A program made the position numbers and the translations under genes. Below, in pieces: positions 1 through 51,243 of a stretch of 64,000 nt of DNA. Position 1 is the first letter of the stretch. Each line of letters begins with the position of its first letter. Source of the DNA: Cyanidioschyzon merolae (taxonomy: Eukaryota). Below the pieces are notes generated by a model. That model ran no database searches and was not told the DNA's origin. It saw only the letters and a program-made list of their open reading frames with translations. The stretch lies in assembly GCA_000091205.1 (NCBI GenBank), contig AP006495.2; one strand, written 5' to 3'.

Positions 1-220
1 GGATGAAGAAATCAAAGAGGCGGATCCTGCGACGCAGGAGGTGCATGAGAAGGGCCTCGTCGTTGACGCGGCGAAGCATGAAGATGAGAAGGAGGCGGAT
101 CCTGCGACACAGGAGGTGCATGACAAGGGCCTCGTCGTTGACGCGGCGAAGCATGAAGATGAGAAGGAGGCGGATCCCGCGACACAGGAGGTGCATGGCA
201 AGGGCCTCGTCGTTGGCACG
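1..220 (+). repeat. 75-bp tandem repeat array, about 3 units, truncated by the window start. In frame it encodes a 25-aa acidic unit [25 protein letters not shown]. It is a near-identical copy of the array at 24516-24815.
   Basis: Direct reading of the sequence: unit 'gaagatgagaaggaggcggatcctgcgacacaggaggtgcatgacaagggcctcgtcgttgacgcggcgaagcat' repeats head-to-tail. The ORF track shows the same 25-aa peptide reiterated. Confidence 0.9.
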
Positions 221-1040
221 GACCCTGGGAATACGAATATCATGACCATTGCAGCACCGAAGCGTGCGGTAGATGGCATTGACGGCAACTTACGTGAGAG
301 CGACTTGCGTCTGTTGAGGTTCTCAAGAACTAGATATTCTCGAGAATCCGGTATAATGAATGCGAGGAAGAAAATTGAGACACGGAATGCAGGAATGAAG
401 GATCACCTGGAAGCTTTGAGCGAGGTGACAAGCCGATGAGCGGACTTTGAAGCTTTTCTGAAATTCATGCAAGTTCGCGTTGCTCATTGGGATGCGCTGT
501 GGAAAGAGTACACCAAGCCCCGGTGGGCTCGATTGCGAATGAATCTACACTGTGGGAAGCGGCGCGCGTTCGCGAACTTTTTCAATCGGCTGAGCGCCCT
601 GAAGGAGAATGAAAGTCAGAGGCTCATAGTAGCTTATTGGGCTGGGCGCTGGATGACCCAAAAAGGAACGACGCCAGCCCCGACGACAAGAACGTACAAG
701 GAGTGCGCACACTGTTTCGTCACGATACCTGTAGATAAGTTCCGAACATCGTATACACGCCACGAGCTGGGGTGTACACTTCAGAGCGTCGAGAAAGGAA
801 AGTGCCAGCGGAGCCCTGGTGATATACAAACGTACGGACCGCTGACCGAAGAGCAAATGGAAAGAAGGGCGAAAGTTCGAGGATTGCTCGCATTAGAAAG
901 TACAACTACGAATGGCGAGAAACGCGTAGCGTTTGTGAATTGAGACTTGAACGCCGCATGCAGTGGAAGGAAATGTGCGGTGATGGAAAGAAGCTCCCAT
1001 CGTGGACAGGAGAGAACTTTGTGGGACACCCTCTCAATGT
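41..1040 (+). pseudogene. Degenerate TnpB/Fanzor-like (OMEGA-type RuvC nuclease) ORF, copy a. It is split over two frames, ORF 41-439 and ORF 467-943, followed by an in-frame TGA at 941-943 that interrupts the RuvC-III motif.
   Basis: RuvC-I-like '[13 protein letters not shown]' at 266-304. TnpB zinc-finger-like 'PAPTTRTYKECAHCF'. 'RVAFVN*DLNAACS' at 926-965 matches the TnpB/Cas12 RuvC-III consensus D-R-D-x-N-A-A-x-N-I except for the stop. The intact version 'NRDLNAVINIRRY' is present in paralog c. Confidence 0.5.
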
Positions 1041-1190
1041 GGAACTATATGAGACAAGATTGAAAGCATTCGTACATGGCCCGCCGAGAAAGCCTCCGAG
1101 GCGTCTGCACATCAGTTGGCATCGTCTTGTCTAGGGCGGGACACTCGCCACTACTGTACCACTGGCAGCAACGTTTTTCTTTTGAAAAGC
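220..1190 (+). mobile_element. Repeat-family copy a (Fanzor/TnpB-like element remnant). It is homologous to 24816-25797; identity is near-perfect up to ~1030 and then falls to roughly 70% before ending in a conserved block 'ggcagcaacgtttttcttttgaaa'.
   Basis: Direct comparison of the two loci in the sequence. Homology stops at ~1190 / ~25797, after which the flanks are unrelated. Confidence 0.55.
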
Positions 1191-1595: not shown

Positions 1596-4370
1596 ATGGC
1601 TTTCGTCAGCACTGTCCATTGCTCGAGGTTTCGCCTCTATGAGACTTGCGGAGCTCAACGCTTGATTGCGTTCTCCGTTCGGTGGCGGTCGTTGAAGCGC
1701 TGTCGCCTGAGACCTGTGTGCGAGTTGTCGAGCGATGGGCAGCTGGAGCCGCGGCGTAATCCGCTGAACAAAGCCGATGATTCGAGCGAAGGACAGGAAC
1801 GCTCTGAATCCGAGCGTTCGCAGTGGACTGAGGAAGCGCGCCGCCAGTGGCCCGAGTACGAGCCGGGCTTTGTGCCACGCTCCCGGAACGACCTGGACGC
1901 AGAAGAATACCCGACGAGCACCCCCGGCGACAGCAGTGGTGGTGCCGGCATCGCTGCGGGCTACGTGACAGGCTCCCGAGAGGTGATCCATGATCCCGTT
2001 GTCGTGTCGCGACGAGAGCTTCTCTACGCTGTGATTAGTATTGCAATAATCGTCACAGGCATTCTGGGGACAGTCTATCGTCGCTCGCTTCGCTGGTTTT
2101 CTCTAGCCGGTGTCTTTGGAAGCCTGCGACGTCGATACCCGCCACCGAACGCAAATCTGCGAGAGTTCATGATGGAGTGTGAAGCCGGCGCTGGACCGGT
2201 AGCACCGGCGCTGCAACACTGTTATTACATTCAGTGGCTGGGGGGTGCCTCCTCAGCACTTGAGGCTGCTCCTGGACATTGCACGGGGAAGAAGCTCCTC
2301 GTGCTGCTGCTTTGGCGAGCCACCGATTCGGGAACCGGGGCTGCCCTGGACGTTCTGGAAAACCTGCGGCCATATATGGACTTTATTGACATTGTCTGCA
2401 TGCACACGCCCAAATTCGATGGCGAACGCCCACCCCGCTTCGTTCAACTCTCTGCCAAGTACCATGAAATGAATTTTCCCTACGGAGCTGATGTCTCGCT
2501 TCGTCTGTGGCGGGATCTCGGAGTAACGGTCTGGCCCACTGCAGTTGTGCTTTCACCGCGTTCCAAACGAGTGTTGTTCGCCTTCGAGGGCTACCGTGCG
2601 CTCCCCCGAATTCTGCTATGTGTTCGCGCTGCTATCGACTTTTACTTTCCCCGGCGCGTGGCAACGCAACCGCCTCCGGAGCCTTCCTTGCGTTCGGAGC
2701 AGCTACCCTCTGGTAAGTCGGCTCGGCTTGGGGCGCACTCTGATGCGTTTCCTATATCCGCAGGTGCTTTGAGCGAGCTGCTGGAGAACAGACGGCGAGC
2801 GCTGGCGTCTGCTGAAGACACCGCTAGTCTCAAGGAGCAACGAAGCTCCACTCGTACTTCGAAGCGCAGTTCACGAAAGCGCGACAAGGCCTCCCCCGAA
2901 TCGCGACTACCAACCCGCTCGCCACTGCCTCCGCAGGACGTTTACGGGCGCCAGATACTCGCTCTCCTGGATACATCTCGCCAAGCGCTCGCTCTGCGGT
3001 TTCCCGGCAAATTAGACGTCCACGCTGAGAGCGATCGTCTGTTTATTGCGGATAGTGGCCACCACCGGATCCTGGTTACCAAACTCTCTGGTGAATTCAT
3101 CGAGCAGATTGGTGGACGAGAGGGTGCCGGCTTTCGAGACGGTACCTTCTCCGAGGCGCTTTTCCAGTACCCCCAGGGCCTAGTCTTTGATCCACTGGGA
3201 AATCGATTGATTGTGGCAGACTCGGGAAACAATGCACTGCGTATTGTCCGTTTCTCGGATGGAACTGTGAGCACCGCATCTGTGGCACCACTTGTCAAGG
3301 AGACCGACGTGCAAGGCGTCATGGAGCGCAGCATATCCATGCAGGACCGCGAATCCGGGCGGCACCGAGCGGCTGTCTCGGCAGCAGCAACAGAGCCACC
3401 TGCAGCGTCCGAAGGAACACCGTTCTGGGCCTGGCAACGACGCTGGTTCAAACCAGAACGAACGCGTCCTGCGGTGCAGCGTCAATACGAGCAGTTGCTC
3501 AGCGTTGCGGACGCCGATGTGCGCTTTGCCGAGGTCAACGACCGCTCCAACAACACGAGCAGCGCTGCCAAATCCAACAGCAAACCAGGAACCACACACC
3601 AAAGAACTGGCATCGCTGCAAATAGCTCGCCGCTCTCGCTAACACCGAGCCCACGCAGTCGTTTCCGACTTCCCTGGGATGTCAAGATGCATGCCGGATC
3701 CGTTTATGTGGCGGTTGCAGGATCGCACCAGATATGGCGTTTGGATTCTACCGGGATCCTCCGAGAATACCGCGGTAGTGGCAAACCAGGCCTCGTGGAT
3801 GATGCCGAGGGCTCCCGGGTTCCGGTGTCGTTTGCGGCGCCTCATGGTGTGTGCGTCCAGGGGACGTGTCTCTATGTCACAGACTCGGACTCGTCTACGG
3901 TTCGCGCCATCGACCTGCGCGCTCAGTGGACACGAACGATTGTAGGCGGCGACGTCTTCTTCCTCGAGAGCCTGTCAACGTTTGGCGACCGAGACGGCTG
4001 GGGCCGCGGCGGGCACCTCCAGTACCCGTGCGGGTGTTGTGCGCTTCCAGATGGTCAGATTCTGCTCGCAGATACGTTGAATCACAAGATCAAGGTATTG
4101 AACCTGGAGCTTCGAGACGTCCGAACGCTGGCTGGGTCCGGAGAGCCTGGGCTCCATGACGGTGCCAGCACACAGGCAGCTTTTTTTGCTCCACAGGGCA
4201 TCGCATACGATCCCACCGTTCGAATGGCGTATGTTGCGGACACGTACAATCACTGCATTCGACAAGTCGACGTTGCCACGGGCACGGTGCGCACGCTCAC
4301 CCTGACTCCTCCGGCGGTTTTGGAAGCGCTCGCTGCGCCCGCTGCGGAAACCTCACCCAACGGTCGATAG
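1596..4370 (+). CDS. NHL-repeat beta-propeller protein with one TM helix and a thioredoxin-like region (NHLRC2 / SOQ1-like architecture), 924 aa.
   Basis: TM helix 'LLYAVISIAIIVTGILGTVY'. A Trx-fold-like stretch 'KKLLVLLLWRATDSGTGAALDVLENL' follows. Six NHL blades are recognisable (e.g. 'LFIADSGHHRILV', 'NRLIVADSGNNALRIV', 'LYVTDSDSSTVRAIDL', 'AYVADTYNHCIRQVDV'). The 924-aa ORF is uninterrupted. Confidence 0.8.
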   Translation: MAFVSTVHCSRFRLYETCGAQRLIAFSVRWRSLKRCRLRPVCELSSDGQLEPRRNPLNKADDSSEGQERSESERSQWTEEARRQWPEYEPGFVPRSRNDLDAEEYPTSTPGDSSGGAGIAAGYVTGSREVIHDPVVVSRRELLYAVISIAIIVTGILGTVYRRSLRWFSLAGVFGSLRRRYPPPNANLREFMMECEAGAGPVAPALQHCYYIQWLGGASSALEAAPGHCTGKKLLVLLLWRATDSGTGAALDVLENLRPYMDFIDIVCMHTPKFDGERPPRFVQLSAKYHEMNFPYGADVSLRLWRDLGVTVWPTAVVLSPRSKRVLFAFEGYRALPRILLCVRAAIDFYFPRRVATQPPPEPSLRSEQLPSGKSARLGAHSDAFPISAGALSELLENRRRALASAEDTASLKEQRSSTRTSKRSSRKRDKASPESRLPTRSPLPPQDVYGRQILALLDTSRQALALRFPGKLDVHAESDRLFIADSGHHRILVTKLSGEFIEQIGGREGAGFRDGTFSEALFQYPQGLVFDPLGNRLIVADSGNNALRIVRFSDGTVSTASVAPLVKETDVQGVMERSISMQDRESGRHRAAVSAAATEPPAASEGTPFWAWQRRWFKPERTRPAVQRQYEQLLSVADADVRFAEVNDRSNNTSSAAKSNSKPGTTHQRTGIAANSSPLSLTPSPRSRFRLPWDVKMHAGSVYVAVAGSHQIWRLDSTGILREYRGSGKPGLVDDAEGSRVPVSFAAPHGVCVQGTCLYVTDSDSSTVRAIDLRAQWTRTIVGGDVFFLESLSTFGDRDGWGRGGHLQYPCGCCALPDGQILLADTLNHKIKVLNLELRDVRTLAGSGEPGLHDGASTQAAFFAPQGIAYDPTVRMAYVADTYNHCIRQVDVATGTVRTLTLTPPAVLEALAAPAAETSPNGR

Positions 4371-6319: not shown

Positions 6320-7010
6320 TCAGATCAACGGAATCAAGATGATTCGCGATACCCTCGAACAAGCTTTCCTATAATAACGGGAATCATAATCCAATGTATA
6401 TGGACATGCCTCCGGTGCTCTGGTCTCCGCACTGCAGCACGCTCGAACCAAGTGCGCTTCAAGTTCTCGATCTCTCCGTTCCAAGCGACGCCAGGGCGCA
6501 GCGATTGACGCCGTCGGATGTACGAAGAAAAATGCTCCATATCGGCAGTTGAAGAATTGCTCACAAGCTTATGAAAAAATTCACTTATCATGCTGCGTCA
6601 GTGAATCGATCCCGTTCGGGAAACGATTTCCTATGCCTTTGCGGCGATCGACGAAACGTACTTCGACGCCTGCATGATACCTGTCACGGGATTTGCTCCC
6701 AAAGGCTCTCGTCTCTTCTGTTTCCATGAGAAAGCGTCTTGGACTCCGACTTGAGTCATCGCAGCGATCGCTTCTTGTGGAGCGTGCGTCACTGTTTTCC
6801 ACGAAGAAAGTGGATTCGTATCGACATTTCTCGACTTGTTCTCCAACCTTGATTCTTCTTTCGGTATCTGTTTCATCTTGGCCAACATCATGTTCCAGAA
6901 ATCATCTATCCGCTGAAAAACCATGAGCTCGTGTGTGCAGCTGACAGAGTACATGGCAAGCGGATCGCCCAAATCAGTACTGTGACCCATTGGTACGGCA
7001 CCTCGGGCAC
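6320..7010. repeat. Solo copy of the ~700-bp 'tail' segment of the dispersed repeat family. It is homologous to 13980-14650 downstream of Fanzor-like copy c.
   Basis: Shared blocks read in both places: 'caagatgattcgcga', 'cttcaRgttYtcgatctctcYgttYcaaggcgac..gcgcagcgattSRYgcc', 'gtcatcgcagcgatYgc', 'atcgcccaRaWcagtactgKtRSSS'. Confidence 0.6.
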
Positions 7011-7061
7011 GTAAGCGGAGGCGGGAATCGGGGAGTCTTCTGTGCCCGCCACGGGCATGCA

Positions 7062-7433
7062 GCGAGCGATGTGGCAAGCGCTCACACGGCATGAGGCAGC
7101 CTCCGGAGGACGTCAAGGCGGACACACAGGAAAGTTCCTGACCACACTCAAGTAGCGAGCGATGTGGCAAGAGCTCACACGGCATGAGGCAGCCTCCGGA
7201 GGACGTCAAGGCGGACACACAGGAAAGTTCCTGACCACACTCAAGTAGCGAGCGATGTGGCAAGAGCTCACACGGCATGAGGCAGCCTCCGGAGGACGTC
7301 AAGGCGGACACACAGGAAAGTTCCTGACCACACTCAAGTAGCGAGCGATGTGGCAAGCACTCACACGGCATGAGGCAGCCTCCGGAGGACGTCAAGGCGG
7401 ACACACAGGAAAGTTCCTGACCACACTCAAGTG
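7062..7433. repeat. 93-bp minisatellite, 4 tandem units.
   Basis: Unit 'gcgagcgatgtggcaagRgctcacacggcatgaggcagcctccggaggacgtcaaggcggacacacaggaaagttcctgaccacactcaagta' begins at 7062, 7155, 7248 and 7341. Units are contiguous with no spacers. Confidence 0.95.
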
Positions 7434-7898
7434 TCATCGCCGCGACAGGCGCACCGAGTGTCCATCCAAAGAAGCTTCAGTGAGCAAGCGCAACGTCGAT
7501 CGCAGCTTCCGCCTTTAGGTAAACAATGCGATAAAAAAGCAGCAGTCGGAAACAACGAGCATCGGCACGCTTTATCTGCTATGAGTGTCTATCGACAGTT
7601 GCTCATAGAGCTGGAGCCCCAGAAGAGACCGACGTTCCTAAAAGTTGGAGATAAGACGCGGGAAACCGTAGCAGTCGAAAAAAAGTTTCGCATACGCAGG
7701 TATTGAGGATAGCAAGAAGATGCCGCAAACACGAGGGCGTGCGTTCGGGTCCGAGGAACCCCCCCCCCCCGGTTCCAAGCCACGGCGCTGTGGATGTTCC
7801 AGGACGCTGCGCGTTGCGAGTCCGCTCTGCGAGCGCGCATTTTCCGTGTCCCAAGTATACAAATTCATATAGTTCTGTCCTGACATGTACTACACGGA

Positions 7899-12599: not shown

Positions 12600-14650
12600 T
12601 AACGCTGTTCTGAGATGGACGAGGAACACCGAACGGAAAAAGGAGATACGTTCAGCGTCAAAAAAGGCGCTCTTGAAGTGAGCTTGCGGTCCATGGTAGA
12701 AAACGACCCAATGAGCAGTTTAGCGAAAGAAAAAGCGACGGTCGTAGCCGCCACGGGCGTCTCTGGCTCTCATCAGCTTGCTCGTATGGTTCCGAACACA
12801 CTCGGATAAAGTCGCAAGAAAGAGTCCGGGTTCACGCACGGCCATCTTGCATCGGAGTCGCAGCTATGACAAACAGTTCCTGGAACGTCGCGACGTGTAT
12901 GGAACACAGCGACATCGGTTTGTCTTTTTCAGTCGATGGGGCTTGCTCCGGACGAAACAGTCAGCGCTTGTTTGGGTATTCGCATAGCGGGGGCCCGTTA
13001 TACGTACGACCGATCTCGAAGAGAACGAGGATATCATTATCAGTTCTGGTTGTAGTGAATACAAGTTGCGGCCTTCGTTTCGCAAGTGGAGGACGCACAC
13101 ACACACACACATACACACATCAATGACTCCGTCAGCGCACTGAAGACCGTGTCCTGACGTCTGGCAACGTCCGTCTATTGGAGAACGTCGAATTTCGCCA
13201 TTCTCCCTACGTTCATGCTTTTGCCGATGCTGTCGGGATAGATCTGCATATCATTTCGCCGCAGGCTCCGTGGTTCAACCCCATCGAATCAGTATTTTTT
13301 ATGGTGAAACGGAATGATCGCTCCACTGGGCGAATAGCGGAAGCGTTCAGCACACGGTGACACACCCGGGCGCACGTCGTCTTTCTTGTGCAAGTCCTTC
13401 TCCAACCGGAAAGGTCGTCACCTAACGACATATACACGTGTATTCCATTTGAAGAAAGGAATATCCAAGGGAAAGGTATGGACGTGCGCGTCGAGGATCC
13501 TGGTGTGCCGTCATCACCAGGTAGAACAACAACCGAAAAACGAAGAAAATCCTCTTCTCGTCGATCATTGAGAGAGCGACGAAGAGCAGCTTACGACGAA
13601 GAAGAGGATGACCAGGAGAGATTGACGACAACAAACGTTTGCTCGACGTAACGATGACGAGACTGTAGTGGCAAAGCGAGCACGAGTTCGAGGACTCGCA
13701 GCAAAAGTGACTTTAGCCATCGTCAATGCACCCAGGGCGTTCGTGAACCGAGACTTGAACGCCGTCATCAATATCAGAAGATATGTGGTACTGAAGACGA
13801 AACCCGCGGAGCTGGCTTGATGTTATTTTATGGGGCAGCATCTCAGGCTCGAATTGTGCCTGGATGAATACTAGAACCGATAGAAGGCAGCCGGTCAAAA
13901 AATAGGCCGGGCGGCGTCTGCGAGTGAGTTTGTATTCACGCTCCATGGTCGTGAATCATTTCTCGTTCCACTGGCTTGTTGTTTTGAAGAATCAAGATGA
14001 TTCGCGACGCCCGCCAAAAAGGTGTATAACGTACCCCAAGTCACGAGCCAACGCTTACGCACGAGCCTCTACGCCTATCCATTCCATACATATGCAGTGG
14101 CCCAGTGATACATGCTTCAGGTTTTCGATCTCTCTGTTTCAAGGCGACTCGTGTGCGCAGCGATTCGTGCCACTGGTCTGAAGAGGAAACATAAAACGCG
14201 ATGCTTCCTTTTGACGACTCGTCCACAGGCAAATGCGGAACGGTCGCTGAACTTGTCAGGCCACGAAGCCGCTTCCGTGCGAAAGACCAATCCTGCTTTC
14301 GTTTCGAGCATAGGCGAAACGGCGCTTGACAACACCATGATAGCTCGCACAGCATAGACCGTGCGACGCCCTCATCTCTTCTGACTGCATGAAACTGGGA
14401 CTTCGACTCGGGCTTTCGTCATCGCAGCGATTGCGCCCAGTAGGGGAAGCGTAGAGAATTCGAGTTTGTTTGACTTTGTCTAGAGCCCGGATTTTCCTTT
14501 CGATCCTTGTTTCAGTATGAATGGGACTGCGCTCCACAAATCCATGATCCATTGGAACAGCATTCGCCTGCGTTTGCAGCGTACATCGTACTCGCTCATG
14601 GAATCGCCCAGAACACGCCAGTACTGGTAGGGTGCGGCATCGAGCGCGAA
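12600..14650 (+). mobile_element. Repeat-family copy c: decayed Fanzor/TnpB-like element with ~400 bp of degenerate N-terminal region, RuvC-I and RuvC-III motifs, plus a ~700-bp tail.
   Basis: The upstream region (12870-13180) is homologous to 35090-35400 of copy d ('ctgacgtctggcRacgtcc..ctattgga', 'cgRtttgtYtttYYcagtcgatgRg'). The tail is homologous to 6320-7010. Confidence 0.5.
13178..13790 (+). pseudogene. Fanzor/TnpB-like RuvC nuclease remnant, copy c. The RuvC-III motif is intact.
   Basis: 'FADAVGIDLHIISPQAPWFNPIESVFFMVKRNDRSTGRIAEA' (RuvC-I 'GIDL' at 13230-13250). '...RARVRGLAAKVTLAIVNAPRAFVNRDLNAVINIRRYVVLKTKP' at 13660-13800, where 'RDLNAVINI' is the D-x-NAA-x-NI RuvC-III motif. The two segments are in different frames and stop-interrupted. 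Confidence 0.55.
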
Positions 14651-22875: not shown

Positions 22876-23490
22876 GGACGTCGACTAGCGACCGAGGCAC
22901 ACAGACTCCCGGTACAACGCTAGCTCCAGATAATGTATGCCAGATTGCCTTATTGTAATTGACGTCGTCGTCGGTAGCGTTGTGGCTGCTGAAGCCATTT
23001 CTTCGATGAGAAGACGTTTGTATGGATCATGGATTCTAGATTGTGGGGTGGATATTGAAATCAATGCCAGTGCTCAATATGATTCGCTCTTACGCCAAGT
23101 TTCATGGTCTGTTCTCGGATATACTGGTAATTTCGTATGTTCTATCGTGCGCTGAGTACCTGCATTGCTGCATCCGCAATAGAGCCAATGCTGCTAGTGC
23201 GGATGCTGAATGGAGACAGAACGGTTTTGCCATATCCATGGGGGTATCGGATCGAGGAATGCTTCATTGAATACGGAATCGGGATTCGTCAACATTCTGG
23301 AAGCCTGGGAGATGTGCAGTTAGACCTACTGCCTGCAGCAGCGCGAAGCGATATACTAGGAGTGATCAACGACCAGGGTGATGCCCAGTCGCAGCATACC
23401 CGCTCCTAGTCCCAGAATAAAGCGCATTGCGAACGAGTTGCTCAGATCTAACCAAAGTACCTGTCACTGGGGCGGACATGAAGCGCAAGC

Positions 23491-24221
23491 TTGGGAACCT
23501 GTCTTCTTAAACATATCAAGGATCCGTACAGGGAAAAGTTGCGAGAGGCCATTAGGAACCGTGTCGACTCGTACTCCAAGAGTATTCTCAAGGCGTCGTC
23601 AGGACGGATGCATTTGGCGAGGGAGATGTATCGCGATGTGGCGCACATGGAAACGGTCGAGATTCCGGGCGAGTTCGTCAACAAGACGTTTTTTCGATAC
23701 CTGAAGCATGGTACAGCGGGAAGCGCGGAGGGAAAATGAGCGGAATCACGCCCTCCACGAAAAATACCCTTTACAGCATCAACGGTACTCGATACAAGGG
23801 TGACTGGGATATCTACGCATACGGGGCGATGAAGTGCGTCACGAACCTGAAGAATCATTTGACAATGAACGTCGAACGTTTCATGATACGCGCCGTGTTT
23901 GCACTTTACCCGGGCCAGTCTCGCAAAGGGATACGGGCGATTCTCAACGGCATAAGGAACGATCGCAAGCATGAACATGAGATCGAATTCGTCGACGAGA
24001 AGGCGTCAAACCAGAGCACGAATGAGGTCTTTGTCATCCGTGCGGTTATACAAGAGCACCGTGCGGCGCTGGCGCTGGTGAATCCAGCAGAAAAGATATC
24101 ACAGTTGAAAAAAGATAAGGAAAGATCCTATCGCCTTGTCCTGCGCTATTTTCTGTTTCTGGACCGAGAGCTCGAACGCAAGGTGGAAATGAAGAGTGAG
24201 AGAGATGGAAGTCTATCCTAA
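23491..24221 (+). other. Two consecutive ORFs in different frames (82 aa + 161 aa) immediately upstream of repeat copy b. They are of unknown function and may be part of the same element or an unrelated decayed gene.
   Basis: ORF track only ('...LVLRYFLFLDRELERKVEMKSERDGSLS'). Similarity to the region upstream of copy c is weak and unconvincing. Confidence 0.2.
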
Positions 24222-24433
24222 TGGGTAAGCGCTTCAACGTCGTTCCAATGCGCAACATCAAGTCACATTTTGTGAGTATCGACTCTGGCGTCTTTTGCAG
24301 CATCATGAGCGAGATCAGTCCTGAGTTCGATGTTAGCAGAGAGGACTTCACTGGCGAAAACCATGAGACGCACTGAAAGAATATCTTCGATTTCAAAAGT
24401 CTCAAAGTCAGAAAGCGAAATGTATCCACGGGG

Positions 24434-25640
24434 ATGATCGAAACCGATGGAGTAGCTTTGTGTGTACACTATCGGCGGTTGAAGATAAATCGTCCAGTTC
24501 CGCCCTCGGCCGCGCCCGTCACGAAGGATGAAGAAATCAAAGAGGCGGATCCTGCGACGCAGGAGGTGCATGACAAGGGCCTCGTCGTTGACGCGGTGAA
24601 GCATGAAGATGAGAAGGAGGCGGATCCTGCGACACAGGAGGTGCATGACAAGGGCCTCGTCGTTGACGCGGCGAAGCATGAAGATGAGAAGGAGGCGGAT
24701 CCCGCGACACAGGAGGTGCATGACAAGGGCCTCGTCGTTGACGCGGCGAAGCATGAAGATGAGAAGGAGGCGGATCCCGCGACGCAGGAGGTGCATGACA
24801 AGGGCCTCGTCGTTGGCACGGACCCTGAGAATACGAATATCATGACCATCGCAGCACCGAAGCGTGCGGTAGATGGCATTGACGGCAACTTACGTGAGAG
24901 CGACTTGCGTCTGTTGAGGTTCTCAAGAACTAGATATTCTCGAGAATCCGGTATAATGACTGCGAGGAAGAAAATTGAGACACGGAATGCAGGAATGAAG
25001 GATCACCTGGAAGCTTTGAGCGCGCTGACGACCCGATGAGCGGACTTTCAAGCTTTTATGAAATTCATGCAAGTTCGCGTTGCTCATTGGGATGCGCTGT
25101 GGAAAGAGTACACCAAGCCCCGGTGGGCTCGATTGCGAATGAATCTACACTGTGGGAAGCGGCGCGCGTTCGCGAACTTTTTCAATCGGCTGAGCGCCCT
25201 GAAGGGGAATGAAAGTCAGAGGCTCATAGTAGCTTATTGGGCTGGGCGCTGGATGACCCAAAAAGGAACGACGCCAGCCCCGACGACAAGAACGTACAAG
25301 GAGTGCGCACACTGTTTCGTCACGATACCTGTAGATAAGTTCCGAACATGGTATACACGCCACGAGCTGGGGTGTACACTTCAGAGAGTCGAGAAAGAAA
25401 AGTGCCAGCGGAGCCCTGGTGATATACAAACGTACGGAGCGCTGACGGAAGAGCAAATGGAAAGAAGGGCGAAAGTTCGAGGATTGCTCGCATTAGAAAG
25501 TACAACTACGAATGGCGAGAAACGCGTAGCGTTTGTGCATTGAGACTTGAACGCCGCATGCAGTGGAAGGATATGTGCGGTGATGGAAAGAAGCTCCCAT
25601 AGTGGACAGGAGAGAACTTTGTGGGACAATCACTAAAAGT
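24434..25640 (+). pseudogene. Degenerate TnpB/Fanzor-like ORF, copy b. ORF 24434-25039 and ORF 25058-25543 are followed by an in-frame TGA at 25541-25543 inside the RuvC-III motif ('VH*DLNAACS').
   Basis: Same motifs as copy a: '[13 protein letters not shown]' at 24866-24904, 'TRTYKECAHCF', 'RVAFVH*DLNAA'. Confidence 0.5.
24516..24815 (+). repeat. 75-bp tandem repeat array, about 4 units. It is coding-frame compatible and forms the N-terminal part of ORF 24434-25039.
   Basis: Same unit as 1-220. The ORF shows '[19 protein letters not shown][A/V]KHEDE' four times. Confidence 0.9.
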
Positions 25641-25797
25641 TGAACTATATGAGAAAACCATGGAAGCAGGAGTAGATGGCCGCTCCAAAAAGACGTGACA
25701 GAGTTTGCACCTCAGTCAGAGACTTCTTGTCTAGAGCGTATTTCTCGCCACTACTGCGTACTGCTGCCGGCAGCAACGTTTTTCTTTTGAAAGACGT
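24816..25797 (+). mobile_element. Repeat-family copy b body and 3' tail.
   Basis: Homology to 220-1190; the conserved terminal block is 'ggcagcaacgtttttcttttgaaa' at ~25772-25795. Confidence 0.55.
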
Positions 25798-26028
25798 TCG
25801 GTGTTTAGAAATCGCCGGCGCTGGCTCATCGGCTCTCTCCTGTGTCGTCTATTGACGCAAAGATTTGTGTTTTTTGTGCTTCCTAGCTTCGACGCTGAAG
25901 CGTTTGCGGCGTGCTCAGTGAACTTTGTACTCTGTTCACTGATCGGTAATCCGGGACGCGTTATACGACGCGCGCACTTAGCATTTATTGGCTACTTTTC
26001 GAGCTCAATCTTCCAAGCCTAAGTTTCA

Positions 26029-35029: not shown

Positions 35030-35930
35030 TGCTTTCATTAATCAGGTCAGACATACCACAGTAATCAGACTTCTACCGAAATGGCAACTCCGGAATTCCG
35101 CGAACGTCGCTATCCAGATAAAGCACATGAACGTCGGTTTGTTTTCCCAGTCGATGAGACTTGCTTCGGACGAAGCGCTCGGAGCGTATATGGGTATGTC
35201 GGAAAGGATGCCCGTTGCACGTCCGAATGAACTCGAAGAGAACGATAGCATGATATATTCTGGGTGCAGGGGATTCATTTTGCGGCCTCAGGTTCGCTGG
35301 TAGTGGAGGCCCATGCAACAGCACCAATCACTTTGTCAAATCATTGCAGACTGGTGCCTGACGTCTGGCGACGTCCCCCTATTGGACGATGTGGTATTTG
35401 ACAATTCCGTTTGCGTTCGAGCTTTTGTGAATTTTATAGATGTCGAGCTGCTTCTCATTCCACAGTAGGTTCCGTGGTTCATCCCCATCGAAGGAGCGTT
35501 TCCTAATCGCCAAACGTAATGATCGCAAAACTGGGCGAATCGCTGAAGCGTCCCCCACACGTTTTTACTCCGAGGGCGCATTTCGTGTTTCTTCCACAAG
35601 TCCTCCTCGCTCCGGGATGGTGTGTACCTAAGAGTAGCAAGAAACGTGTTCATTTTTGAAGAAATACAATACCGAAGGAATGATCTGGGCTGTCCACTGT
35701 AGAAGGTCGAGATGGACCGAGGGCAGCGCATGGCTTCGGCGACAGAAAAATACGGAGCGATGACAGAGCACAAACTGGCATCAAGGTCTCGAGTTCGAGG
35801 ACTCGTTGCATTGGTGAGTCCCACCAGACGCAATAAACGCATGAAATTCATGACCCAACGCTTCAACGCTGCCATCAATACGACGAGATGTGTGGTACCG
35901 AAAAAGAGACCCACGGAGCTGAGGTGATCC
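35030..35930 (+). mobile_element. Repeat-family copy d: decayed Fanzor/TnpB-like element fragment between the SNF2 and starch-synthase genes.
   Basis: '...RFLIAKRNDRKTGRIAEASPTR' parallels 'VFFMVKRNDRSTGRIAEAFSTR' in copy c. ORF 35712-35927 'SRSRVRGLVALVSPTRRNKRMKFMTQRFNAAINTTRCVVPKK' carries a degenerate RuvC-III 'NAAIN' motif at 35861-35890. Upstream DNA is homologous to copy c. Confidence 0.45.
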
Positions 35931-36695
35931 AACTGAGTGGGAGCAGCTCTTCACCGATAGAATCGGCGAAGAGCTTCAACGCAACAGTAAGCGTAAATTA
36001 CCATGCAATCCAATGGAAGGACGTTGCCAGAAGCCGGAAAAAGTCTTCGATCATTCGACGAAATAGATCCTGTTGTATGAGCCTTATCTACGGGCCAGTA
36101 CTGAGGCCGCCAAATGAATCCACTGCAGCTAGATCAGAGGACGAAGAATACCTCGTTCCGATCGAGATCGATCGTCGATACAACGGGCGCCCTGCTCCTC
36201 GAATACCCATCTACAGTCCAACTATTTCGTCCGAGGCAAGCCGCACCAACTGAAGAAGAAAACCAACGTCCCTACACTGTGCACGGATCGCAACTTTCCA
36301 GTAAAGATGTCGTTGCTGTTTCGATGGAAATGGCCGTGATAGAACTAGAGTATTTTTCCGGACCGTATCCCAGTGTTCCCAGGATCACACGAACAAGCAG
36401 TAGAGCAGCAGAGACGCCCCCAGCTGCTACCAGGATCGCTTCTGCTTTCCCGAAACTATTCAACCGTGAACTTTTCTACCATTGATTTGAACCACGCTCT
36501 GACAAAACCAGCTTTTGAAGCGGTAAGCATCCAGCTCCTTCTTTCAGTATTCCTCATCCATCTGAGTACTACGGTACACCTGACGACCCCACGAAGGAAT
36601 GCAGTCCTCCTGGCACGATTCCGGAGAGCATCCATCCTACCGGCGATTTGTCTATAATCCAGAATCCGCATGACATAAGTGATGTCAATCGCCTG

Positions 36696-47832: not shown

Positions 47833-50800
47833 GCACCTCCAATGCCCGTGGCAAACCTATTCAAATGCTTCATACTTGCTCGTTGACGTCAGCCGTAGCT
47901 CGCGGAGAAGCGCCACACCGAACAGATGCGTTTGTCGTGACATGCGCGGCATGTATTCGATACATGGGCAGTGCAGGGAATACCCGCTGGAGGAGGCTAG
48001 GGCGCTCGTTTACAGCGAGGAAATTCGCCATATGCATCGGACGGCTCTGTTCCGGGAAACGTAGTAGTTGCGCATGATGCGAGGAAGGCAGGCTTCCTGT
48101 CCCAAGCATCCCGGCTAGATGACCGCTGTCGGGCCGATGCTGAGAGCAGCACGTTGCCCTTGAAGGATGGCAGGGAGCTCTGGCTCGCGTTGCGACATAT
48201 CCGCAGAACTCGCAACCAACTCGAGCTCTTCTGCCTCCATCCGGCTCATCAGTTGCTTCCACTAGCACCAGGAGGATCCGTTCCATCCGTCATTATCGAT
48301 CTGGGCCAGTAAGGTGACTATACAACGCCCACAAGCTGTGCTTCTTGAAGTGCTCGACACGAACCCGCATGTGAATTTGGCTGTTGCGATTAGTTCGACG
48401 CTTTCTGAGACCAGCGCTGTAGATGCTCTGGTCGCCCCAGTCCAGCTGCGACGTGTCCAGGTACTCTCCGAAGCGCGTTGTGAACTCACTGATCCTACAA
48501 CCAGACCCTATGTCATATTCTCTATCCGGTGTATCGGAGTTGTTGTCGCACGAAGGTTTGATCCATCAATTCCTGATGAATGTTGATAGCTGGCAGCCCT
48601 GCGTCCCGGACTCGTATGAACAGCTGCTCGTCGAGGTACGGCAAGTCGGGTAATACTAGGTGAGCATTCCCAAAGCCAGAAGATAAGCGAAGTTGAATGG
48701 CGTCACGGATAGTTTTTGGATATGAAGCATATGCGCATCTGTCGAATGAATGCTTGTACATAAAAATTCCATTGGACATTGCAGAAGACGTCATGGACGG
48801 GATGGGTCCAAATCCCGGGGCCTCACACGAAAAGCAGCACAACGCCGATACCCGCTACGTGCTCTTTGGCAGCATATTTGTGACGAGGAGCGACATTGTC
48901 TCGGAGGCAGACCAGGGAATGCAGGAAGCCGAAGCCGCTAGTTGCGTTGACGATGCATGAGGTGTTTCATGATCCTTTCCGTATGGAGCATTGTTACCGA
49001 CTGCATGATTGCGTCTCCACTAGGGGTGAAGTTGTTGTGAGGATCGCTTCTCGCTTCGCTACGAGCAGTAGGCTGCCGCTCTGTAAGCACCCATGGACAG
49101 GTCGATCACTCCTCCCGAGTAGCGGTTCATAGCGCGAGACGAGCACCTGTTCCTCATGGGATGCGCAATCCTCTTTCAGGGCGAACCCGATAAAGTCTTG
49201 TCTAAAAAAGAATGGGACGGTCTCCCGTAGACAGGCGCGATTTTTTCGTTGCCCATCCGTGCCGCTTCATCCCCGTTCATATGCACCGTGCGAAAAACGT
49301 CACATACTGTGGTATCTCATGGAGTATCGCCCAGAGAGCATTCGGATTGCAACGGAATAACAAGAAAACAGCCTAGTAGATGGTGTCGGATTGGTTCTTT
49401 TCGGGTGCACGACGCTCGGAATGAAGGATACGAGAACGATCGGTCATCCAAGTGCTGAATTTTGAACGAGCGACCTGGACAAGCGAGGTGTTCTCTTCGC
49501 AGGCGAGCGGCGACAGCATTACGTATTTGCACAGCGCCTTCGTCAATGAAGAGAGGACATACCTTCTGCCAGATACCTGAGAAAAAAATCAAACATAAGC
49601 AAAAGAGCTTCCCATTAAAGATAGGCGGGAATGCGCTTCGATCTCTGCGGTTCGACCGGTCGATGCTTCATCTTCAAAATTACGAGATAAAAGAGCACAG
49701 CTAAGGTAGGCATAGGCCTGCAGCACCTAAGGGAGCGAAATGTTTCGCCTCTATAGAGTCTATATAGATATCTACCGACGCACAGGCGCATCCTAGTCGT
49801 TTTTGACCGGCACCTGTTATCGGTGTCAGTTGCTCTCCCAGCACACTTCGAGACCGAGAGGCTGCCGCATAGAGTTGTATCGCGTCAGCCCCTCGGGTCT
49901 CGTCTTCAACAACGCACATCGTCTGATCTGGATAGCAGCACTGAAGTCTCGGCTCACGGAAACCATGCGTTTAGTTGCCTCTGTTTGAACTCACAAGTGC
50001 CAGGCGTCCTCGAACGAGCGCCCTCTGTGTCACCACAGTCTCGTAATCATCCCGTCAGGCAAACACGTTTTCTCGTCTATCTCCAATCGACATCTTCTTC
50101 TTCTTCGTTGCTTGCTCTTCTGCGCCTGATTGTCGCCGAGAAGGAGATCTTCCACGTTCTTTCCTGGCAGCCGGCGAAACGGGGCCTCCAGGATCCGCCA
50201 CGCTCACTTCCATCACTTTATTTTGTTTTGAATATGAACCCGATGTCGAACGCGTCTGCCTTGAACCGCGAAGCATGACTTGAATACACGAGTGTGAAGG
50301 CTGAAGCACAGCCGACTTGCCGGACGATACGTTGCAATGACTTTAACGCAAATACAGCTCGGACGTCAGAGGAACCCGCTCATCATCATCGTGATCGCGT
50401 TTCTCCTCAACGGCGAGATACGCATCGCATCCCATGCCTGCCAGATTTGGAGGTGCGCGTATCGACCCCGCTATATAGAAAAAAGAACACAAACGAACAT
50501 CTAACTAGCAACGAGATAACGATTTCTTTCCACCGCTACGATCAAAGTCAAACAGAGGAAACGTTTTCCGTATTGTCGAAAGTTTACCTTCCAGACGAAA
50601 GGTCCCGCAAGCCGGACGAGTCGATCGGGCTCTCGCGCCATATTCCTCCGTAGGGGCGGGTGCTGTAATGAGACCTGAGCAACTCGTCGGCAACGCAGTT
50701 TATTCTGGGACTCGGAGCGGGTAGCCTGCGTCTGCGCGTCGCCCTGGTCGCAGTGGACTCCTAGCAGCTCGCTTCCCGCTGTCGCAGGCAGTGGATCTGT

Positions 50801-51243
50801 CAGCACATCTTCCATGCTTCCAGAATGCTGATGAATCTCGATTCCGTATTCACTGAATCATGCCGCAAGCGGACGCCCTCAGTAGTATCCCAAAGCGGCG
50901 CTGTCTCTGTGCTCCATCCGCACCATCTGTAGCGGTGCTATTGCGGGTGCTTACCGCGGGTACTAGATGCTCGACAGAACGTACGAAACTACAAGTACGT
51001 ACAGCAGAATGCATACGTAATGGGACTTGAAGAAAGGATCCAGCATCATGGACGTTTTGTCGATTACCAATACCCATCCCACAGTCGGGGATCCGCGGTC
51101 CATCGAGACGTACTGCCGAATCGCACCAATCAGCGCAATGATCTCCTTGACGCCCGGTATTCGAGCTCCTTCTCTACGATCAGGAAACGTACGCTTGCAG
51201 CGCTGCGTTGCGGTAGGCAGTAGAAGCACGGAGCTCGTTACAA

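Follow-up and report, generated by a model that had tools for sequence, protein, structure and literature searches.

The window analysed here is a stretch of 64,000 nucleotides from Cyanidioschyzon merolae, and its ORF at 1596–4370 is protein XP_005537164.1 of strain 10D, with identity over all 924 amino acids. Exact-protein look-ups with six ORFs of the window gave no recorded match. Two degenerate copies of a Fanzor1 element, here called A and B, lie in the window, with copy B sitting 22 kb downstream of copy A in the same orientation. The modules of the two copies, together with an older relic of the same family, are as follows.

1–1199, + strand: copy A, the 3′-terminal 1.2 kb of a CMe-1A-like, degenerate Fanzor1 element (by tblastn), cut on the left by the window edge and with its right end at 1199.
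1–1028, + strand: young core segment of A, ~98% identical to B 24526–25628.
17–215, + strand: 75-bp tandem array in A (TRF), 2.7 units, encoding a 25-aa repeat just upstream of RuvC-I.
221–223, + strand: RuvC-I Asp codon, GAC in GTDPGNT, kept.
1029–1199, + strand: A-type tail, the 3′ terminal module, holding about the last 45 ancestral codons and the right end; 66–71% identical to B 25629–25804.
13626–13960, + strand: older 3′ relic of the Fanzor1 family, with CGA GAC intact at 13749–13754.
23002–25804, + strand: copy B, complete but internally deleted and degenerate, with its left end at 23002 (from an alignment of ~30 copies) and its right end at 25804.
23002–23337, + strand: left-end-proximal segment of B, 336 bp, ~65–70% identical to the metagenomic copy L031inv.
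23484–23497, + strand: internal deletion junction of B, where ~560 bp of the N-terminal coding part were lost; common to L031inv.
25629–25804, + strand: B-type tail, 176 bp, a 3′ module that appears to have been replaced; its nearest sampled relatives, L074 and L035, are just 79–81% identical.

The TnpB/Fanzor-like gene in both copies was recognized by three-frame translation and by tblastn with the intact homologs P0001 and P0007. The stitched pseudoprotein, used as a query, found 70 proteins, nearly all metagenomic and most of them 52–78% identical, and the homolog consensus carries GADPGNTN (RuvC-I), VDEFRTS (RuvC-II), and NRDFNAAIN (RuvC-III), with the catalytic D, E, and D present. When searched against the PDB with hmmsearch, a profile of the homologs matched SpuFz1 (8GKH) at E = 6.9e-6 over ~370 residues; this match needed distant homologs in the alignment, and the same search with close homologs alone gave no match. 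Foldseek placed SpuFz, PpFz, and GtFz at ranks 1–7 (E 1e-8 to 1e-4), followed by Cas12o/Cas12f, for an AlphaFold model of low confidence (pLDDT 54). Pfam returned no match for the stitched pseudoprotein or its close homologs, and PF07282, the Zn-ribbon/TNB domain expected between RuvC-II and RuvC-III, was matched by the distant homolog P0069 alone, with E = 1.8e-5 and under the gathering score.

One Fanzor1 family, CMe-1A, is listed for C. merolae; it has ~150 copies at ~80% identity to the consensus, is ~3 kb long, lacks TIRs, has TSDs recorded as undetermined, and shares its 5′ 635 bp with the short element TE-N2_CMe (Bao & Jurka 2013, Mob DNA 4:12; PMC3627910). We found at least 219 related stretches in metagenomes, and for the element ends the comparison set consisted of 80 related loci found in the metagenomes of Cyanidioschyzon-like populations. 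Copies designated L below come from these related populations and not from 10D. Complete copies of the family measure 2.6–3.5 kb with a median pairwise identity of 83%; TSDs were looked for at the junctions and found at none of eight complete copies, where TIRs were also absent. As length, identity, and the lack of TIRs and TSDs all agree with CMe-1A, copies A and B are members of this already described family, matched by description, in this very genome.

Identity break and shared lesions

Pairwise alignment pairs A 1–16 with B 24526–24541, and ~98% identity runs from there to 1028 in A and 25628 in B. The first-pass annotation had described this near-identity as extending over 1–1030 and 24516–25630, which is correct in substance, with the start in B misplaced by ~10 bp. 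It had also described the 75-bp array as common to both copies. An array is indeed present in each, but that of B (24542–24815) comprises 3.7 units by TRF, one 75-bp unit more than in A, and the number of units also differs among homologs. Downstream of the array, A 222–1028 and B 24822–25628 differ at 18 of 807 columns (97.8% identity).

The reported sharp fall to about 70% near the 3′ end was recovered, at ~66–70% from 1029/25629 to 1199/25804. The break is abrupt: the last common stretch is the 17-mer GAGAACTTTGTGGGACA (A 1012–1028), and the first mismatch follows directly at 1029/25629. Between A 1029–1199 and B 25629–25804 there are 55 differences in 176 columns (~69%), made up of 42 in 122 columns over A 1029–1150 (66%) and 13 in 54, with indels, from there to A 1199/B 25804. 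Divergence is thus not uniform along the alignment, with 18/807 in the core against 55/176 in the tail (Fisher p = 1e-29), and the stop codons of the two copies coincide. The ancestral C-terminal codons of the tail read ...ENFVG/QPLKVELYE...RRLHLGWRRFV followed by a stop, with the slash marking the break. Several predicted proteins of the family end in ...ENF(I/F)G, and we considered whether the break is a structural boundary of the ORF; this was rejected, as in L005 the next codon has simply changed from CAA to TAA.

Within the core, A and B share five lesions.

437–439, + strand: in-frame TGA where the family has GGA (46 of 62 copies), the Gly of SRGADF, by a G→T transversion; B 25037–25039; also in L031 and L030.
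638–640, + strand: TGG (Trp) for the family Gly (GGA/GGG) in VVAYGAGRW; also in L031.
737–739, + strand: AAG (Lys) for the RuvC-II Glu of VDEFRTS, which is GAG in 55 of 62 copies; also in L031.
941–943, + strand: in-frame TGA for CGA, the Arg of RuvC-III NRDFNAAIN; B 25541–25543; also in L031.
993–994, + strand: 1-bp deletion relative to the family consensus, a frameshift (tblastn frame 2 to frame 1); B 25593/25594; also in L031.

The same TGA does lie inside the RuvC-III motif of both copies, as had been noted, and CGA can be taken as the ancestral codon for the Arg of NRDxNAA: it occupies the site in 39 of 62 copies and is kept in the relic at 13749–13751. This relic, which reads CGA GAC, is probably the “paralog c” that the first-pass annotation had cited for its CGA. 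The relic at 35.8 kb was rejected for that role, since it reads CAA CGC at the site. Two shared frameshifts had been claimed as well; the shared range instead contains a single frameshift, the 1-bp deletion, together with two in-frame stops. A TGA at the 941 site also occurs in L074 and L015a, and we take these to be independent changes.

In both A and B, the catalytic Asp of RuvC-I is kept (221–223), the Glu of RuvC-II has become Lys (737–739), and the Arg of RuvC-III has become a stop (941–943) beside a kept Asp codon (944–946). With the RuvC motifs altered by E→K and Arg→stop, both copies are dead Fanzor1 members. All five lesions recur in L031, a third copy, which lies at a different locus. 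As the inactivating lesions are common to A, B, and L031, the template from which they derive was already dead, and the earlier proposal that the copies spread after inactivation is borne out. The 437 stop recurs in L030, a copy at 17% divergence, which also has a frameshift no more than 3 nt away from the shared site; this suggests that inactivation of the lineage may go far back.

The CGA→TGA change at 941 had been read as the classic signature of methyl-CpG deamination. It is a C→T change at a CpG, the sole CpG transition among the shared lesions, the others being two G→T transversions and one non-CpG G→A. CpG is not depleted, with an observed/expected ratio of 1.16 in the window and 1.14–1.25 in the copies. 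Across the family, CpG sites show only 1.4 times as many transitions per site-copy as non-CpG C/G sites (0.084 vs 0.061), and differences between the A and B cores comprise 4 transitions and 13 transversions. When published bisulfite data for C. merolae were re-analyzed, nuclear 5mC did not exceed the organelle background (10.1101/2022.10.24.513474). The deamination reading is not sustained by these observations, and CGA→TGA is simply a one-step path from Arg to a stop. This corrects a tempting inference of methyl-CpG decay in an alga with no detectable nuclear 5mC.

Discordant ancestry and the history of copy B

As paralogs of a single element, copies A and B look young, and the relationships of the segments on the two sides of the break are discordant. 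Over 851–1028, A matches B at 98%, and L030 comes closest to the pair from outside, at 83%. Over 1029–1150, A remains 82% identical to L030, while B falls to 61.5% and finds its nearest relative in L074, at 81%. As L030 is collinear with A across the break and not with B, the tail of B is the one that was replaced; the assignment of B as the recombinant rests on this collinearity and on two-of-three parsimony. L031 agrees, joining the core to an A-type tail (98%) at another locus. Compared with each other, the A and B tails are 66–71% identical, and each is 76–82% identical to dozens of other family copies. Since each tail resembles unrelated members more closely than it resembles the other, the two have different ancestries, and a raised local rate does not account for them. 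The break is, as the first-pass annotation had put forward as one option, a recombination or gene-conversion boundary rather than a product of simple transposition.

Other members of the family show comparable patterns. Among six paralog pairs at different loci with a body identity of ≥90%, five have a far lower tail identity, with breakpoints that vary. Over 644–1028, A, B, and L031 form a trichotomy, 1–2% apart, and L031 has a dense patch of divergence from both A and B at A 493–643. The five pairs and the L031 patch together argue for frequent ectopic recombination in the family, and the terminal mosaicism of the pairs points to pervasive ectopic gene conversion. In C. merolae, gene replacement by homologous recombination is routine and uses arms of 0.5 kb (methods, 10.1101/2022.10.24.513474), and frequent ectopic recombination fits an organism in which genes can be replaced through such short homology arms.

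The left part of copy B was compared with L031inv, an additional copy that lies in inverted orientation where the contig carrying L031 ends. The two are 98% identical over 23338–23770, deletion junction included, and ~68% identical, with indels, over 23002–23337, where both are clearly the left end of the family. A left-hand identity break in B therefore lies at 23337/23338, as seen against this one metagenome relative. Here the altered partner could be either B or L031inv.

In our preferred reading, to which we assign a probability of roughly 0.8, both copies have a core from a dead template, and the 1028/1029 break marks where a tract of ectopic gene conversion, formed between divergent members of the family, ends. 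The ~2.3-kb core of A and B would derive from a single dead template with two stops, a frameshift, and the RuvC-II Glu→Lys change, and A would retain the tail native to this core lineage. In B, the core (23338–25628) is joined on its 3′ side to a 176-bp module of a different, older lineage and on its left to a 336-bp left-end segment, also of a different lineage. An older element resident at the B locus would have had its interior overwritten by sequence from a donor resembling A or L031, and its own termini would have stayed in place. One internal conversion tract accounts for both breaks in B, which makes this the most economical history. Moreover, because the divergent tract of B reaches unique flank, unlike a classical internal patch, we prefer conversion of the core into an old resident over conversion of the tail. 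The comparisons directly show the mosaic structure, the lesions in common, the limits of the element, and its place in the family, and from them we infer both the direction of the event and conversion as its mechanism.

Alternatively, a dead copy could recently have been transposed in trans to give B, with the 3′ and 5′ ends replaced later or by template switching between paralogs, for example through synthesis-dependent repair finishing on another family member. A and L031 are 95–98% identical up to 1199, beyond which their flanks diverge; sharing core, tail, and right end at different loci, they indicate that a dead copy moved with its own terminus. The break also falls immediately after a 17-mer that is strongly conserved in the family and would make a plausible switch point, and the hairpin classes at the right end (described below) are shuffled relative to the tail lineages. 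Against this, a separate event would be required at each end of B, which is less parsimonious than one conversion tract, and neither terminus has a donor among the sampled copies; for the tail of B, the other relics in the window likewise supply none, and the best match is 81%, a point that also weighs on the preferred reading. We regard this course of events as unlikely.

The remaining explanations fare worse. Divergence of the 3′ end in place, under relaxed or diversifying constraint, would agree with a tail that is less conserved than the body throughout the family (median pairwise identity 75% vs 83%), and a different constraint on this end had been suggested at first. It would need a ~14-fold step in local rate at one nucleotide (55/176 vs 18/807), and it conflicts with a tail of A that is 98% identical to that of L031 and with each tail having its closer relatives in other lineages rather than in its partner. 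Tail types common to other lineages speak for ancestry rather than rate, and we give this explanation hardly any credence.

An assembly chimera, in which a collapsed, A-like core was wrongly linked to the B tail, is similarly very improbable. In sister strains, the metagenome contigs invariably break off inside these repeats, and one of them, L092, looks chimeric at the element end. The 10D reference, however, is a finished genome, and at 7 sites the B core alone departs from a state common to A, L031, and the consensus. The terminal ~80 bp of B, with B-specific indels, recur beside the AlaRS gene in three sister-strain assemblies (L081–L083), whose cover stops short of 25628/25629, and contigs L085–L088, spanning 875–1595, reproduce the core-to-tail junction of A and its flank. 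The same mosaic pattern is also present in other copy pairs. The AlaRS gene near copy B has its best named relatives in Cyanidiococcus and Cyanidium.

A segmental (chromosomal) duplication of a block holding the element, as the first-pass annotation had termed the pair, would suit two copies in the same orientation, 22 kb apart and ~98% identical, but we dismiss it because their homology ends at the right terminus of the family (A 1199/B 25804), with 26 of 38 columns differing in the unrelated downstream flanks and no further similarity between the flanks of A and B in a self-BLAST of the window.

Element ends and comparison with known systems

Alignment of the related loci defined both ends of the element. 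The left end begins T(T/C)CGATGACAAAACGTTT, corresponding to B 23002, and is preceded by a T-rich flank on its 5′ side. The right end lies 6 nt past a subterminal hairpin, at A 1199 and B 25804.

1170–1193, + strand: subterminal 10-bp hairpin of the right end, class 1, AACGTTTTTC-TTTT-GAAAAGCGTT (ViennaRNA); in B at 25775–25798.

Two sequence classes of this hairpin were observed, AACGTTTTTC/GAAA.ACGTT and GCGTCGTTCGA/TCGAACGGCGT, each with a stem of ~10 bp. In ViennaRNA folds of 46 copies, the median MFE was -9.9 kcal/mol and the median z was -3.4, and compensatory double changes occur, e.g., in L055. For the tail as a whole, RNAalifold on 46 tails gave no global consensus fold and just one 5-bp helix, the inner helices proposed by hand (AGAC/GTCT and GGCG/CGCC) show only sporadic compensation, and Rfam has no match. 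L092, in which an unrelated gene is fused to the final 56 bp of the element, was considered as an empty site of copy A and rejected, as the join is within a few bases of the starts of four other contigs and looks like an assembly break or chimera.

In characterized Fanzors, the ωRNA comes from the right-end region and may overlap the C-terminal codons, by 17 aa in GtFz1 (PMC10432273, PMC10530073). By analogy, the swapped tail module may hold an ωRNA scaffold. One could go further and suppose that the terminal modules, namely the left-end segment and the right-end tail with its hairpin, are exchanged between CMe-1A copies as functional units, that dead copies such as A and B persist by supplying cis-acting ends or guide RNAs to a few intact Fanzor1 proteins of the genome, and that Fanzor-induced breaks with ectopic repair would generate mosaics of young core and old termini; we consider this proposal rather improbable.

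Relative to CMe-1A, the likeness is complete at the level of the family, in a comparison made with the published description. The genome is the same, as are the Fanzor1 (TnpB-like) protein, the length of ~3 kb, the many copies at ~80%, and the lack of TIRs and TSDs, and a non-coding 5′ region of ~0.6–1 kb also recurs in deletion derivatives (compare TE-N2_CMe). To this family we add the exact left and right ends, a right-end hairpin in two classes, the T-rich 5′ flank, and mosaic copies. The ends, hairpin classes, and flank should aid the design of experiments on the movement of this unclassified Fanzor1 transposon and the location of its ωRNA. Though the finding is of limited weight, it bears on the dating or counting of Fanzor1 element activity in C. 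merolae: high identity between CMe-1A copies does not date transposition, as recombination can homogenize cores and leave termini with older histories.

The characterized Fanzor1 proteins (SpuFz1, GtFz1, and PpFz; Saito et al. 2023, PMC10432273; 8GKH, 9CER, and 9CF0) share with this family the order of RuvC-I, -II, and -III, similarity of profile and fold, and a gene on the 3′ side of the transposon. In contrast to these, A and B are pseudogenes, the family has no obvious CxxC...CxxC zinc ribbon, and only the subterminal hairpin is well supported here, from sequence alone.

Similarities also extend to bacteria. IS200/IS605-type TnpB elements have a subterminal hairpin, no TIRs or TSDs, a short sequence bias directly 5′ of the left end, and a TnpB-family gene at the 3′ side. 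All of these recur in the C. merolae elements. Unlike them, the CMe-1A family encodes neither a Y1 TnpA nor any other transposase, and its host is eukaryotic. We treat this resemblance as only a lead.

Finally, ectopic gene conversion among dispersed repeats is familiar from, e.g., yeast Ty and primate Alu/L1. As in those systems, we observed abrupt shifts in identity, discordant ancestry of adjacent segments, flanks that are not exchanged, and inactivating mutations that would have been copied between loci. Copy B differs in having diverged termini around a homogenized interior, and tracts that reach the edge of an element look identical to terminal replacement. The tail swap of B is ordinary behavior for a repeat family and not the mark of a new kind of element.

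Substitutions and recombinant patches in the Fanzor1 copies

The two related Fanzor1 copies of the window, A (degenerate, CMe-1A-like) and B, were compared across the core preceding their drop in identity (A 229-1028 versus B 24829-25628). This comparison yielded 17 differences, comprising 4 transitions and 13 transversions, the latter being six C↔G, six A↔C, and one A↔T. The substitution spectrum is unusual, albeit in a small sample (n = 17).

The codon at which the A/B break starts coincides with a CAA to TAA change in the related metagenome locus L005 (around position 3028). In the predicted protein from this locus, P0001, the chain stops after ...ENFIG, since the codon that follows has mutated from CAA to TAA. 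P0002, P0003, and P0005 share this terminal residue, with the CAA to TAA change itself read at L005. A further metagenome locus, L031 (Ga0078972_1002060), carries approximately 22 substitutions relative to A and B within 150 bp, at the equivalent of window 493-643, and is 98-99% identical to both outside this region. This region represents another recombinant patch.

In metagenome contig L092, a Saf4/Yju2-like gene (1-960) is joined to sequence equivalent to window 1144 onward, which makes up the 3′-terminal 56 bp of copy A. The junction lies within a few bases of the start points of four other contigs. Rather than representing an empty site, L092 was probably assembled chimerically at a k-mer shared between repeats.

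Element ends

Among approximately 46 copies, the subterminal hairpin of the right end (RE) fell into two sequence classes, both of which retain a stem of ~10 bp. Which class a copy carries is shuffled with respect to the lineage of its neighbouring tail.

1170-1193, RE subterminal hairpin of copy A
25775-25798, RE subterminal hairpin of copy B
22991-23001, example of the 5′ flank of the left end (LE)

The four bases directly 5′ of the LE were T-rich (46 of 72 bases across 18 distinct sites, where the window is ~22% T), which may reflect a target or TAM-like preference. Compared in direct orientation, the LE motif GACAAAACGTTT is similar to that of the RE, GACAACGTTTTT, and neither target-site duplications nor terminal inverted repeats were present at the element ends examined.

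Further relics within the window

At least three additional relics of the same Fanzor1 element were found within the 64 kb.

13626-13960, plus strand, Fanzor1 element relic
35670-35951, plus strand, Fanzor1 element relic
49773-50196 with 50157-51123, minus strand, Fanzor1 element relic

Separately, a tandem array at 7061-7432 (93-bp unit, 4.0 copies, 98% identity) overlaps a minus-strand ORF (6631-7437).

In the minus-strand relic (49773-51123), an intact-looking left-end region of ~1 kb is fused directly to a 3′ fragment, and the relic is therefore an internal-deletion derivative, reminiscent of the short C. merolae element TE-N2_CMe.
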